The notes under the pieces were generated by a model, which was not told the origin of the DNA, made no database searches, and was given only the letters and a program-made list of their open reading frames with translations. From a virus, in IMG/VR virus record IMGVR_UViG_3300032241_000811, positions 32,001 through 96,000 of that record: a DNA stretch of 64,000 nucleotides; one strand, given 5' to 3'. Shown here in pieces: positions 1,275 through 33,739 of the stretch (position 1 is its first letter; each line of letters begins with the position of its first letter). Position numbers and translations under genes: made by a program.

Positions 1275-1496
1275 CTAACAAGATATGTTTAGAAATGTCG
1301 GGCAGTCTGGAGATGCACAAACAAATCCCATTACACCTTCCAATCTCATACCACATTTTGGGCAATGACTTATCTTATTTAATTGCGGCTTCTGTGGTAC
1401 ATAAGGTACATAAGGTGCCTCTTGTTTCTTGCCTTCATTGAATCCATCTCGCCATCCATCCCGATAGCCATTTGTATAGTCATTGTTGTCTGTCAT
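1275..1496 (-). CDS. Small zinc-ribbon protein (GY.DG repeats, CPKCG...C....CP)
   Basis: ORF track; GGAG RBS. Confidence 0.6.
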   Translation of the reverse strand: MTDNNDYTNGYRDGWRDGFNEGKKQEAPYVPYVPQKPQLNKISHCPKCGMRLEGVMGFVCASPDCPTFLNISC

Positions 1497-1512: not shown

Positions 1513-1604
1513 TGGCGGAATGTACTGGATTTGAACCAGTGGTACCTTTTTAGGGGTACGGCGGTTTAGCAAACCGCTGGAATAAGCCTCTCTCCCAACA
1601 TTCC
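1513..1604 (-). tRNA. tRNA-Ser(GCT)
   Basis: GCGGT-TTGCTAA-ACCGC anticodon arm, long variable arm, CCA. Confidence 0.92.
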
Positions 1605-1608
1605 ATTA

Positions 1609-2010
1609 TTATTCAAGATAAGGTATTCATTCTTCGGCGAAAGAGCAGTTCTTAGCCCCCTTGAATAGGGGTGCAATCTGTTCGTCTTTATATCCAGCCA
1701 ATCCACAACCGACACGTGTCACAAACCATTGTGTGTTTTGGTGTGATGTGATTTGGGTATACAGACAAAAGATTTCAATTGATCTAGCTATCGTTTGTAA
1801 ATCAAGTGTTTCTATACTTTGGTTTTTGGTAGCTATAGCATAACTATTTCCACAAAGACCTTGACCAGTTCCTCATACTGCACCAAACTTTTGGAGTGCC
1901 ACTTTAGCAGCGCCAGCACCATGAATGCCAGCTAGATTGCTTCCGAATACAAACACCTCCCCGTTTTGGGGAAGTGTTCCATCTCTATGGAATGTATATA
2001 GGTATGTCAT
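1609..2010 (-). pseudogene. Macro-like phage protein (FVFGSNLAG.HGAGAA family) with two in-frame TGA codons; pseudogene or UGA read-through gene
   Basis: 134-codon frame MTYLYTFHRDG...VFVFGSNLAGIHGAGAAKVALQKFGAV*GTGQG...FVTRVGCGLAGY...FAEE*IPYLE; TGA at 1873-1875 and 1627-1629. Confidence 0.8.
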
Positions 2011-2012
2011 AT

Positions 2013-2525
2013 CTAAGCTACCTTCAGCTTACGATCTTTCTTTTGTGTCATTTGCATGATAGCATCCTTGTAGCGGTCTGCACAATAACTTGCACACCAT
2101 GCGTCTGGCTTGACCATAGGAATAACATTGCACATACCGCGAATGTATCCAACAGCTTCATTGATAACACATGAAGAACCTTCCTTGAGGTCTGGGTTGA
2201 TGTCAAGATGAATCTCAACCTCGCGCTCACCGATGATGTCAACAAGCTTCAAGTATAGTTCTGCTGTCTTCATCACCTCAGTCATCAGGCGCAAACGCGG
2301 GCGATCCTTCTGCTGGTCATAGTCACGCTCACGAGTGATTTCACCAAACACACGGCAGCCGTTCTTGCCATTTATATGGACAACAACGACATTGATGTAG
2401 TCAGCATACCAAACACCATCCATCTGGAAACGCTCGGAGTCGCCACCGATGTATACCTTTGTGTCCAGCGATTGGGTGTTTAGAAATGCTGTGAGTTCGT
2501 CTAAATCTAACTTTTTGCGTAACAT
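2013..2525 (-). CDS. RNase H-like YkuK/DUF458 family protein
   Basis: YIGGDS...RLMTEV...EIHLDIN...KPDAWCASYCAD. Confidence 0.8.
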   Translation of the reverse strand: MLRKKLDLDELTAFLNTQSLDTKVYIGGDSERFQMDGVWYADYINVVVVHINGKNGCRVFGEITRERDYDQQKDRPRLRLMTEVMKTAELYLKLVDIIGEREVEIHLDINPDLKEGSSCVINEAVGYIRGMCNVIPMVKPDAWCASYCADRYKDAIMQMTQKKDRKLKVA

Positions 2526-5336: not shown

Positions 5337-5428
5337 TGGCGCGCCAGACAGGATTCGAACCTGCATCGGACATATAATCCACTCCAGTTACCTTTGTTCG
5401 CGTTCGTAGCGCGAGGGGATACTAACGC
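5337..5428 (-). ncRNA. D-armless tRNA-like RNA with Arg(ACG) anticodon arm and enlarged variable region
   Basis: GCGTTAG/CTGGCGC acceptor, 7-nt linker, TCGCG-CTACGAA-CGCGA, T-arm, CCA. Confidence 0.7.
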
Positions 5429-5512: not shown

Positions 5513-5587
5513 TGGCGACCCAAGTAGGACTCAAACCCACATCTCTTCGCTTTAGAGGCGACTGCATAATCACTCTGCCATTGGGTC
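5513..5587 (-). tRNA. Amber suppressor tRNA (anticodon CTA)
   Basis: GACCCAA/TTGGGTC acceptor, TCGC-CTCTAAA-GCGA anticodon arm, G73-CCA. Confidence 0.85.
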
Positions 5588-7271: not shown

Positions 7272-7307
7272 ATCAATACTCCTTGGTTGACGGAGTATTT
7301 ATGAAAT

Positions 7308-7352
7308 TGGTACTAGCGGGTGGGATCGAACCACCTACCACACGGTTATCAG
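7308..7352 (-). pseudogene. 3' half of tRNA-Ile(GAT)
   Basis: CTGATAA loop, T-arm and ACCA present; 5' half missing. Confidence 0.75.
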
Positions 7353-7419
7353 TTTGATGTTTACCTATGTAGAATTTTTGATTTATTTTGTTAGTAATAT
7401 GATAGATAGTGTAGAACAT
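7345..7419 (-). pseudogene. Truncated GIY-YIG endonuclease (first ~25 codons)
   Basis: MFYTIYHITNKINQKFYIGKHQTDN, paralogous to the N-terminus of 3026-3715, fused to the tRNA half. Confidence 0.8.
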
Positions 7420-7423
7420 TTAG

Positions 7424-7478
7424 AGAATCCGATTTGTATAAGCCCATATAGGTTATTTATACAAATCGGATTCTGATG
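7424..7478 (-). promoter_or_regulatory. Late-promoter hairpin leader copy 2
   Basis: AGAATCCGATTTGTATAA/TTATACAAATCGGATTCT with TATAAATAACCTATATGGG. Confidence 0.8.
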
Positions 7479-7554
7479 TCAGCGTAGATGGATTTGAACC
7501 ATCGGTCTCCTGCTCCCAAGGCAGGCGGATTAAACCATACTTTCCCACACGCTG
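7479..7554 (-). tRNA. tRNA-Pro(TGG), no encoded CCA
   Basis: CCTGC-CTTGGGA-GCAGG; C1-G72. Confidence 0.88.
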
Positions 7555-7560
7555 TTATTC

Positions 7561-7604
7561 TGGCGACCCATAGCGGTTACGATCCGCTGACACATCTTAG
7601 ACAG
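7561..7604 (-). pseudogene. 3' half of tRNA-Asp(GTC)
   Basis: CTGTCTA loop, T-arm and TGGGTC-GCCA end; 5' half missing. Confidence 0.7.
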
Positions 7605-7605
7605 A

Positions 7606-7661
7606 GAAGCCTCCGAATACTAAACCCATATAGGTTATTTAGTAAACGGAGGACTTCAATG
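7606..7661 (-). promoter_or_regulatory. Late-promoter hairpin leader copy 3 (downstream ORF deleted)
   Basis: GAAGTCCTCCG...CGGAGGCTTC around CTAAATAACCTATATGGG. Confidence 0.75.
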
Positions 7662-7750
7662 TAGGCGTGTAGGGACTCGAACCCTAGCGAGAACACCGAT
7701 CTAGTGCTAAAGGGATTATAAGGCCCTCCGGTATACCTATACTCACGCCT
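7662..7750 (-). tRNA. Atypical tRNA with TAT anticodon, tetraloop D-arm and long variable arm
   Basis: AGGCGTG/CACGCCT acceptor, GTAT-AGGT-ATAC D-arm, CTTATAA loop, AGCACT/GGTGTT extra arm, T-arm. Confidence 0.65.
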
Positions 7751-7758
7751 TTATTTGT

Positions 7759-31576: not shown

Positions 31577-31993
31577 TTATTTTGTGTCAAGTGGTGTCTT
31601 GAGTTTTCCAATGTTATATTTTGCAACAAGATTCCACTCTGATTTTTCCTTATGTGCAATGATCTTTATCTGGCTGATCGGAGCCACTGGGTCTTTGCTT
31701 TTTTCAGCGTCTACCAGCTTGACAAGTTCCCATTCGCTCAATAGATTTGCAATGGTATTTCTGCGAGACTTATCTTCATCTGAGAAGTCGGATTGCTTGC
31801 CATCAAGGATGAATAGTTCCTTGAAATGAATGATGTAATACTTGCCCTGCTTGTGTAGTATATGGCACGACTGATACAGGGTCTTTTCTTTTTTTGATGC
31901 CACACCAATACGAGAAAGAGTTTCTTTTACTTTCAGAAAGTCGTCTGGTTTATCTAGTGTCACCTCCAACAGATTTTCTATTAGATTTTGCAT
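31577..31993 (-). CDS. regA: Translational repressor RegA
   Basis: PDDFLKVKETLSRIG...LYQSCHILHKQGKYYIIHFKE. Confidence 0.96.
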   Translation of the reverse strand: MQNLIENLLEVTLDKPDDFLKVKETLSRIGVASKKEKTLYQSCHILHKQGKYYIIHFKELFILDGKQSDFSDEDKSRRNTIANLLSEWELVKLVDAEKSKDPVAPISQIKIIAHKEKSEWNLVAKYNIGKLKTPLDTK

Positions 31994-32375
31994 TATTGAC
32001 GCCACCTTTATTCGTTAGTCTTTTTATTTCGTTTAGCTGGTCGTCTGAAAGGATGTTTATAGCCTCTCTGGCCTTTTCATTGGAATAACCGAAGTATTCT
32101 TTGACAGCATTCAACCCATCAGTATCCTCCCGCTTCTGCCACTTCTGAAAAGGTCTTTTATACGACCTAATGGTATTTAGCAGATATTGGAACTGCAAAA
32201 GATTGTCGGTGTCTGGCAACTTGTTCATCTCATTGACGAGCATAACACAGTCATAATGAAACGACAAAGCACGATTGACAACGAAAGGGTTGTAGTCCCT
32301 CTCATTGTCTTTCGTGATCACATGCTGCTTTGTTTGCAGTATAGCCGGTAAGACTTCTTTGAATATGTCAGACAT
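31950..32375 (-). CDS. 62: Clamp loader small subunit (gp62)
   Basis: YNPFVVNRALS...VKEYFGYSNEKA...KGG. Confidence 0.92.
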   Translation of the reverse strand: MSDIFKEVLPAILQTKQHVITKDNERDYNPFVVNRALSFHYDCVMLVNEMNKLPDTDNLLQFQYLLNTIRSYKRPFQKWQKREDTDGLNAVKEYFGYSNEKAREAINILSDDQLNEIKRLTNKGGVNNAKSNRKSVGGDTR

Positions 32376-32808
32376 TATTAACCTTTTCATCAGAAGGAAG
32401 ATTTTCCAATAGATACCTTAAAGCATTTCTAACGCCTTCAATATTGTCTCCTAGATATCCTATACCAGAGTTACACTGTTTACATAACCATCCACGAAAG
32501 TATGCTTCTCCTTTAGAATCGTAGTGGTGATCAAAAGATAGATTGACGTTGCTTTGTTTTTTTCTGCCACAGCACTCACAAGCATCAGGCATTTCACGCA
32601 CTGTAACGTCTAACTTCAGTGCTTTGAGTTCAGTAAAGTATTTGTTCTTACAATCGGTACATCTTGTATCTGGCCAAGTTCCTAATCTTATAGGAAACAA
32701 AGAAACAGCTTTTTCTACACCACAAAGGCTACACGTTCTTTGTGGTTCTTTTTTATTAGTTTCTATTCCCAAGAATCTTTCTAATGTTGACACTAATACC
32801 TCAGACAT
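32368..32808 (-). mobile_element. Endonuclease VII-like nuclease inserted between gp44 and gp62
   Basis: CECCG...FDH....RGWLCKQCNSGIG.LGDN; flanked by 8-bp direct repeat ATGTCTGA. Confidence 0.8.
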
Positions 32809-33739
32809 ACTCACAATCAACCATCATCTCAGTCAGCATAGCTACAAGATTTATCTCTTGGTCAGCAACAAAAGCTGACTGGTACTGATACTTTGATATG
32901 ATAACCACAGCTTGAGGAATGCTTTGCGGCTTGATGTATTCAGCAAGACTGTCATAGATTTTTCTGAATATGCTTGATGCATCAATGTCCGAGTTTGTGG
33001 TTACCCACTTCCTCATCTCATTAAAGTTCTTATCCTTCAAGGATGAAACCAACTCAGCAAGCTTCTTCACATCAGACAACTGAGCAACAGTGCTTGCATC
33101 AATGGTTCCAGAAACGCTGAACCGCTGCAACTCATTTATGGTTCTGCGATAGTCGGGAAAATACTTCTCAACAATCTTGGCCAGAGAAGCCTTATCATAG
33201 GTTATCTTCTCTTCTTTGAGAATAGACTGAAGCCTTTTGAATAGCTGAGTAGCCATCTCTTTCTTCTCATCGTTCTTGAGCGAGAACTCCAGAACAGTGC
33301 AACGAGAGTGTAGAGCATCAATCAGGCGAGACTTGAAGTTGCAGGTAAAGATGAATGTGCAGTTATCTGCAAACTCCTCAATGACACCGCGCAGGCCTGC
33401 TTGAGCATCTGGTGTAAGATGGTCTGCTTCGTCTAGGATGATCACCTTCTTGCCTCCAGTAAGAGATACTGTAGAAGCATAGCCAATGATCTTGGTGCGC
33501 AGCGTGTCAATACCACGCTCTTCCGAAGAGTTGATAAACAGATAGTTGACACCAATCTCCTCACACATGGCCAGTGCAATGGTTGTCTTACCGACACCAG
33601 CAGAGCCAGTGAGCATGAGATTTGGAATCTCTTTTCTGTTTACATATTCTTGGAAAGGCTGCTTGAGACGCTCAGGCAGAATACAGTCATTTACTGTTGT
33701 CGGGCGGTAACGCTCCACCCAGAGGAAGGATTTTTTCAT
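32801..33739 (-). CDS. 44: Clamp loader AAA+ subunit (gp44)
   Basis: LWVERYRP, GSAGVGKTT, ILDEAD, LHSRC. Confidence 0.96.
   Translation of the reverse strand: MKKSFLWVERYRPTTVNDCILPERLKQPFQEYVNRKEIPNLMLTGSAGVGKTTIALAMCEEIGVNYLFINSSEERGIDTLRTKIIGYASTVSLTGGKKVIILDEADHLTPDAQAGLRGVIEEFADNCTFIFTCNFKSRLIDALHSRCTVLEFSLKNDEKKEMATQLFKRLQSILKEEKITYDKASLAKIVEKYFPDYRRTINELQRFSVSGTIDASTVAQLSDVKKLAELVSSLKDKNFNEMRKWVTTNSDIDASSIFRKIYDSLAEYIKPQSIPQAVVIISKYQYQSAFVADQEINLVAMLTEMMVDCEYV

Follow-up and report, generated by a model that had tools for sequence, protein, structure and literature searches.

Two in-frame UGA codons at tryptophan positions of a predicted macrodomain gene in a T4-like phage

The interrupted gene and its surroundings

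The stretch of DNA analyzed here, referred to as the window (64,000 nucleotides, positions 32,001 to 96,000 of the source record), comes from IMG/VR record IMGVR_UViG_3300032241_000811, a metagenome-derived linear contig of 109,580 bp that is estimated to be 63% complete. This phage has T4-type replication genes, and its DNA polymerase shares about 52% identity with those of cyanomyoviruses and marine phages. Early in the window, in a tRNA region, a gene of the phrog_2072 family carries two TGA codons within its reading frame. The features of the locus, in window coordinates and with the stop codons numbered in the direction of translation, are the following.

1275 to 1496, minus strand: ORF of 73 aa encoding a zinc ribbon; in the homolog P0036, a homologous sequence is fused to the macrodomain as a C-terminal tail
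1513 to 1604, minus strand: tRNA-Ser(GCT), immediately downstream of the macrodomain gene
1606 to 1611, minus strand: tandem TAA TAA ending the full-length frame, one base ahead of the tRNA-Ser gene
1609 to 2010, minus strand: predicted macrodomain gene of the phrog_2072 family, a frame of 133 sense positions and a terminal TAA, with two in-frame TGA codons
1624 to 1626, minus strand: codon 129, ATA (Ile), directly 3' of the second TGA; the homolog column is 90% Arg/Lys
1627 to 1629, minus strand: second in-frame TGA, codon 128, context GAA UGA AUA
1726 to 1728, minus strand: W95, the sole remaining TGG tryptophan codon
1825 to 1827, minus strand: Lys62 codon, downstream of the first TGA; aligns with TARG1 Lys84 and PhiKZ AdfM Lys78
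1873 to 1875, minus strand: first in-frame TGA, codon 46, context GUA UGA GGA
2013 to 2525, minus strand: upstream RNaseH-like gene (PF04308), with its TAG stop 2 nt before the macrodomain ATG
5513 to 5587, minus strand: suppressor-type tRNA with anticodon CUA (amber), which reads UAG, not UGA

The ATG at 2010 opens a minus-strand frame that runs for 133 codons without a frameshift down to its stop (translation of 1612-2010). This is the 134-codon frame, absent from the ORF list, that the initial annotation had described, and its account of the interruptions also holds: the only ones are the TGA codons at 1873-1875 and 1627-1629, which lie 246 nt apart, and one tryptophan codon, W95 (1728-1726), is still TGG. 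Under translation table 11 the frame is split into a 45-aa ORF (1873..2010) and a 31-aa ORF that starts with GTG (1627..1722). The read-through product matches the phrog_2072 profile (E = 4.9e-43, 147.4 bits) over residues 10 to 132, which correspond to positions 12 to 133 of the 143 in the profile. It has no Pfam hit. This end-to-end match indicates a genuine gene rather than a frame open by chance, and it bears out the earlier recognition of a phage protein family. The RNaseH-like gene and the macrodomain gene form a tightly coupled arrangement. On the other side, the zinc-ribbon ORF shares 30% identity with the tail of P0036 (E = 9e-7, pairwise), which suggests that macrodomain and zinc ribbon may be a functional pair, split in this phage by the tRNA-Ser(GCT) gene.

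Relation to DarG2/TARG1-class macrodomains

The phrog_2072 family has more than 8,000 members (for the read-through product, over 7,900 homologs were found, typically about 130 aa long), including 17 short forms that are split or frameshifted copies. It is listed as "unknown function", has no Pfam model, and is represented in 443 GenBank phage records, among them those of N4-like, T4-like, and many other phages. An AlphaFold model of the read-through protein, built on a 36-sequence alignment (pLDDT 86.4, pTM 0.84), has the three-layer alpha/beta macrodomain fold. The top Foldseek matches are TARG1 (4j5q; TM 0.69, probability 1.0, E = 2.5e-3) and DarG (5m3i/5m3e), and the structural matches are nearly all macrodomains, including alphavirus nsP3, at TM scores of 0.6 to 0.69 and with borderline E-values.

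Profile alignments place "AIATK" on the "ITK" motif of TARG1, with the invariant K62 on the catalytic K84, and "RVGCGLAGY" on "RIGCGLD" of TARG1 and "RIGCGLAGG" of SCO6735. AdfM (PhiKZ gp104) is a phage macrodomain that removes the ADP-ribose added by DarT2 from DNA, and its putative active site includes N23 and K78 (PMC13309987). K62 and N25 of the invariant "GSN" align with K78 and N23 of this protein, at an hhalign probability of only 38.6%. Thus, the catalytic lysine of the class (TARG1 K84, DarG2 K80, AdfM K78) is matched by K62, and the active-site asparagine of the first loop (DarG2 N22, AdfM N23) is aligned to N25 in that same weak hhalign comparison. The catalytic Asp125 that follows GCGL in TARG1 has no counterpart; the position holds Ala105 (GCGLAGY), as in the "GCGLAGG" of SCO6735, so the chemistry may be closer to that of DarG and SCO6735 than to that of TARG1. 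Across the family, an invariant Lys occupies its AdfM/DarG2 active-site position, and an invariant Asn may occupy the other.

The phrog_2072 protein is therefore best read as a small macrodomain of the DarG2/TARG1 class and is probably an ADP-ribose hydrolase of the counter-defense kind, an assignment drawn from the model and the alignments. It resembles macrodomains of this type in its predicted fold and the aligned lysine, perhaps also in the asparagine, and its "GCGLAG" motif matches that of SCO6735. Unlike them, it is short (about 130 aa), and the copy described here has two in-frame UGA codons; it belongs to a separate sequence family, with about 21% identity to AdfM. Because K62 lies downstream of the first TGA, an active enzyme would need read-through, and the 45-aa fragment cannot be the enzyme.

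Tryptophan columns, preservation, and the genetic code

Both stops fall where homologs carry aromatic residues. Column 128 is Trp in all 120 of the closest homologs; column 46 is W in 53 and Y in 40, followed by Q, M, L, and F, with W in the closest relatives. These counts support the initial annotation, which had given W or Y for the first site and W for the second. To compare codons, we used 145 related loci from IMG/VR and the JGI metagenomes, and here too the relatives are uniform in lacking the stops: codon 128 is TGG in 142 of 142, codon 46 is TGG, TAY, ATG, and others, and in none of the 145 is the gene interrupted by an in-frame stop. A TGA in the W128 column was also sought with a degenerate pattern, N-C-S-F-A-E-E plus TGA, which had no match in 2.9 million IMG/VR contigs and 7 matches, all by chance, in the GTDB species representative genomes. 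By these comparisons both TGA codons are unique to this phage. Since no relative shares them, they are young and lineage-specific and not a conserved feature; the stop conservation expected of programmed read-through is absent from the 145 loci, and column 128 has no TGA in IMG/VR or GTDB. The best full-length homolog of the read-through protein is 76% identical. We found no near-identical relatives, with TGG or with TGA, in the phages collection, IMG/VR, or the JGI metagenomes, and synonymous sites are saturated at the protein divergence of at least 24% that separates the gene from its homologs.

Apart from the stops, the gene is in excellent condition. None of the 69 columns that are at least 80% conserved carries a mismatch (30 of them upstream of the first stop, 36 between the two, and 2 beyond the second), and 11% of intact homologs are equally free of mismatches at conserved columns. 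With an independently built phrog_2072 profile the read-through protein scores 147 bits, versus 133 to 144 bits for nine intact homologs. There are no indels, and the start, the frame, and the tandem terminator are intact. All conserved residues downstream of the stops are retained, which, with the closest relative at 76% identity, may or may not reflect selection after the stops arose. Only Y3 and I129 are residues unseen in the homolog set, and of the two only I129 lies downstream of either stop; its place in a column that is 90% R/K hints that constraint on the tail may have relaxed. A relative-rate test gave no acceleration and carries little weight, since the homologs had been picked for their resemblance to the query. 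Gene calls on two further contigs, from Logan and ENA (the longest being 105,877 bp), include the same 45-aa N-terminal ORF, and the genes that neighbor the macrodomain gene appear in JGI, Logan, and ENA. At least the first stop thus recurs in separately made assemblies, maybe from the same reads, which argues that the allele is not an assembly slip.

How surprising such a pattern is can be gauged by enumerating all single-base changes in a simple model of neutral change. TGG>TGA accounts for only 5 to 12% of first nonsense mutations, and the chance that the next visible change after the first stop is another stop, and not a missense change at a conserved column, is about 0.1. The joint chance of the observed pattern, in which both stops are TGG>TGA, is 2e-4 to 1e-3. 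For a gene chosen in advance this is strong evidence; for one picked from millions it is much weaker, because a scan of that size expects a few such coincidences.

The phage itself uses TGA as a stop. Crude calling of 133 genes gave 85 that end in TAA, 32 in TGA, and 16 in TAG, and the gp41-like helicase, uvsX, and gp44 are all terminated by TGA, as the initial annotation had stated. Every uncalled gap and all long same-frame segment pairs joined by TGA were inspected, and the contig contains no second TGA-interrupted gene; its other tryptophan codons, about 358, are TGG. With TGA so common as a terminator and every other gene uninterrupted, genome-wide use of code 4 was rejected. The rest of the genome had been proposed as a place to look for a UCA or Trp tRNA, and neither is among the 24 tRNAs of the 63%-complete contig (ARAGORN; Rfam at the gathering and E ≤ 1 thresholds). 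Nor does the contig, at that completeness, encode an RF-1-domain protein or a class-Ib aminoacyl-tRNA synthetase (TrpRS), so a phage-encoded UGA decoder was rejected for the contig. Recoded phages have in-frame stops in 26 to 71% of their genes, encode a cognate suppressor tRNA, and avoid ending genes with the codon that they have recoded (bioRxiv 10.1101/2021.08.26.457843). Here, a multitude of TGA-interrupted genes, a UCA tRNA, release factor, or aminoacyl-tRNA synthetase (in the 63%-complete contig), and avoidance of TGA for termination are all absent, and the phage is not recoded in the sense of Borges et al. It shares with the code 4 phages of the Agate and Jade clades (Borges et al.) an in-frame TGA on Trp and a host that probably has the standard code. 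Unlike them, it has a single affected gene among about 140, no UCA tRNA in the contig, and TGA as the terminator of 24% of its genes.

A stop-suppressor tRNA is indeed present in the neighboring array (5513-5587), as had been noted at the outset; its suggested link to the UGA codons fails, because a CUA anticodon reads UAG. For this tRNA, ARAGORN draws four Watson-Crick anticodon-stem pairs, with a G27.A43 mismatch at the top of the stem, and a 3-bp D stem. No genes with in-frame TAG were seen in the contig. Close by, at 5340-5428 on the minus strand, an 89-nt tRNA-like element scores 27.6 bits against an Rfam threshold of 29 and is not called by ARAGORN; its acceptor stem, T arm, and CCA end are good, but it has no normal D or anticodon arm and is probably a degenerate or rearranged tRNA. 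As a UGA decoder it was rejected, being degenerate and having no UCA loop. Another tRNA-like sequence, at 7661-7745 (minus strand), has an anticodon loop with TAT (Ile, reading AUA) and a long insertion ahead of the T arm, and is called by neither ARAGORN nor Rfam (E ≤ 1).

Signs of mobile and repeated DNA are found at several places. Amid the tRNA genes, 7272-7758 (minus strand) holds the truncated start of a GIY-YIG homing endonuclease (MFYTIYHITNKINQKFYIGKH...); this decaying gene shares its region with the macrodomain gene. At 32368-32820 (minus strand), an ORF of the Endonuclease VII family (PF02945) lies between the clamp-loader genes gp44 (32801-33739) and gp62 (31950-32390), overlapping both, and looks like an inserted mobile nuclease. 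Past the end of the window, at genome positions 104,800-107,500, 43-codon segments separated by TAG occur on both strands; these indicate a periodic repeat of roughly 130 bp inside three adjacent genes of about 380 aa.

Possible origins of the two stops: silencing, read-through, and others

The reading that we prefer, while granting that it may well be wrong, is that the macrodomain gene is an accessory gene that was silenced very recently by nonsense changes. Two independent G>A transitions would each have turned a TGG tryptophan codon into TGA. Since the phage decodes TGA as a stop, ribosomes would end at codon 46 and release a 45-residue fragment without the catalytic Lys62. Reinitiation after the first stop, which would give a two-piece enzyme, was rejected: the frame has no in-frame ATG, GTG, or TTG before codon 97, so a restart at V97 cannot rescue the catalytic part. 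The only standard route to the full-length protein is insertion by the near-cognate Trp-tRNA(CCA) at both UGA codons, which would require this tRNA to beat RF2 twice. At rates like those of E. coli, 2 to 4% per UGA, full-length yield would be about 0.04 to 0.16% of initiations. The gene would then be effectively off, and its loss would be recent, preceding any other decay. Once the gene was dead, a second stop would be neutral, so two hits in one gene fit.

Normal TGA termination, the lack of a UGA decoder in the contig, and the absence of the stops from every relative all support silencing, as do the position in a tRNA region with decaying homing-endonuclease remnants and the occurrence elsewhere of split or frameshifted members of the family. 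Accessory genes of the anti-defense type are often dispensable, and inactive alleles of anti-DarT factors circulate naturally, for example, ICP1 AdfB (PMC11481870). In these respects the gene resembles other nonsense pseudogenes of accessory or anti-defense phage genes, which have premature stops in a dispensable gene that are absent from relatives. It departs from them in that constraint elsewhere in the gene is not relaxed and in that both lesions are the same change, one that would be silent if read through. Of the usual marks of a pseudogene, premature stops under the genome's own code are present, whereas those of relaxed constraint (missense at conserved sites, indels, acceleration) are missing, with I129 as the sole hint. 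Against silencing, then, stand the lack of any other decay, with 0 of 69 conserved columns changed, and the chance of 2e-4 to 1e-3 for the pattern; an intact, near-identical allele is known from none of the collections searched.

The alternative that competes most directly, possible in our view though on the unlikely side, is functional decoding, in which UGA is read as Trp in the natural host often enough for the gene to be expressed. The basis could be a tRNA-Trp with a 4-bp anticodon stem or of the Hirsh type, an opal suppressor, a weak RF2, or some factor encoded in phage DNA outside the contig, and the two UGA codons would serve as an attenuator or as a host- or condition-dependent switch for a counter-defense enzyme. 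A stronger form of this idea, to which we give slightly less credence still, has the two codons act as two "locks" on one counter-defense gene, so that the wild-type enzyme would be made only where the tRNA-Trp reads UGA efficiently; the gene would then have a translational switch of its own, or would show the earliest observable stage of recoding toward TGA=Trp in a phage. Both stops are TGA and both are on Trp columns, one of them invariant, exactly as read-through predicts, for only Trp codons can be replaced by UGA under read-through without a change in the protein. The improbability of the pattern by chance, the top-of-range family score with all conserved downstream residues kept, the tight coupling to the upstream gene, and the recurrence of the 45-aa allele in further assemblies (three in all, maybe from the same reads) count on the same side. 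In wild-type E. coli, Trp-tRNA reads UGA at about 2% per site at 37°C and 4% at 25°C (PMC10570021). Variants of tRNA-Trp with a 4-bp anticodon stem, a feature associated with relaxed reading of the third position, are much better at reading UGA and are found in diverse bacterial lineages; suppressor tRNAs are present in 0.3% of the genomes that use the standard code (PMC13092985). The contexts here are UGA-G and UGA-A, whose strength would depend on the host. Several observations tell against decoding. The contig, 63% complete, lacks a UGA decoder, two sequential UGAs multiply the loss of yield, and a generally leaky host would scatter TGG>TGA over the roughly 358 Trp codons rather than twice in one gene. 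Back-up stops within 3 codons, a sign of a leaky host, are not in excess after TGA terminators (12 of 32, versus 30 of 85 for TAA). The stops are conserved in no relative, and no significant RNA structure that could stimulate read-through follows either UGA (z = -0.18 and -1.11), which argues against a structured read-through signal. The model thus requires an unseen factor of host or phage together with gene-specific selection for two successive attenuations. The coat/A1 protein of Qbeta is a natural example of UGA read-through. What such cases, and the E. coli background, have in common with this gene is competition between near-cognate Trp insertion and RF2 at UGA; in the known cases a single conserved stop closes a functional ORF and read-through adds an extension, whereas here two unconserved stops lie inside a single-domain enzyme and the upstream fragment is an implausible product.

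The remaining explanations concern where the codons came from. A recent import from a TGA=Trp genome, either the phage of a code-4 host or a TGA-recoded phage sharing the host, would have brought the TGA codons in as sense codons into a gene that is now silent or only leaky; we consider this improbable. Two of the three Trp codons are TGA while the protein is intact, and the gene prefers A- over G-ending codons (NNA:NNG 20:6, versus 51% genome-wide; p = 0.01), with a G3 of 0.11 (rank 3 of 66) and a GC3 of 0.29 against 0.41 ± 0.08. TGA-recoded phages on standard-code hosts do exist (bioRxiv 10.1101/2021.08.26.457843), and nearby homing endonucleases could mobilize DNA. However, TGA at the W128 column was found neither in the 2.9 million IMG/VR contigs nor, beyond the 7 chance matches, in the GTDB species genomes, nor in the 145 fetched relatives, where all 142 scored have TGG; the GC content of the gene, 0.416, equals the genome mean, and several native genes show the same A-ending bias. 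In another T4-like contig the gene is also in a tRNA array beside the same RNaseH-like gene, with identities of 59% and 61%, and the similar divergence of both genes in a shared setting fits vertical descent. A sequencing or assembly artefact, or a minority variant carried into the consensus of a phage that really has TGG at both sites, is far less credible. In its favor is the metagenomic origin of the 63%-complete linear contig; two separate substitutions of identical type 246 nt apart are atypical of assembler error, the truncated 45-aa ORF is also on the separately assembled contigs from Logan and ENA, and all other genes in the 109.6 kb look undamaged. Artefact and other explanations taken together are still quite improbable. 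Insertion of selenocysteine, for which UGA is the codon, is scarcely conceivable and was rejected: the homolog columns are Trp or aromatic and never Cys, neither UGA is followed by a significant hairpin, and no tRNA-Sec was found (ARAGORN, Rfam). The absence of RNA structure together with the Trp columns excludes it.

The initial annotation had offered three explanations. Import from a UGA=Trp lineage finds no support, as no family member in IMG/VR or the GTDB representative genomes bears the TGA at W128, the tRNA-region neighborhood is as in other T4-like contigs, and the one oddity of composition is a modest bias toward A-ending codons; conditional read-through and two independent TGG>TGA mutations both stay viable and are not told apart by these data.

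Assignment of phrog_2072 to the TARG1/DarG2/AdfM class, if right, gives this family a testable predicted function, the removal of ADP-ribose from DNA or protein. If the two stops are simply a fresh nonsense allele, the gene would be a tidy example of an accessory gene of the anti-defense type that has been switched off, and a warning that ORF callers hide genes like this one. If read-through is real, it would show that UGA-to-Trp decoding can gate individual genes in phages with the standard code. That would tie the UGA-reading tRNA-Trp variants of bacteria to the regulation of phage genes, and it would represent a first step toward stop-codon recoding in phages, ahead of the acquisition of a suppressor tRNA.
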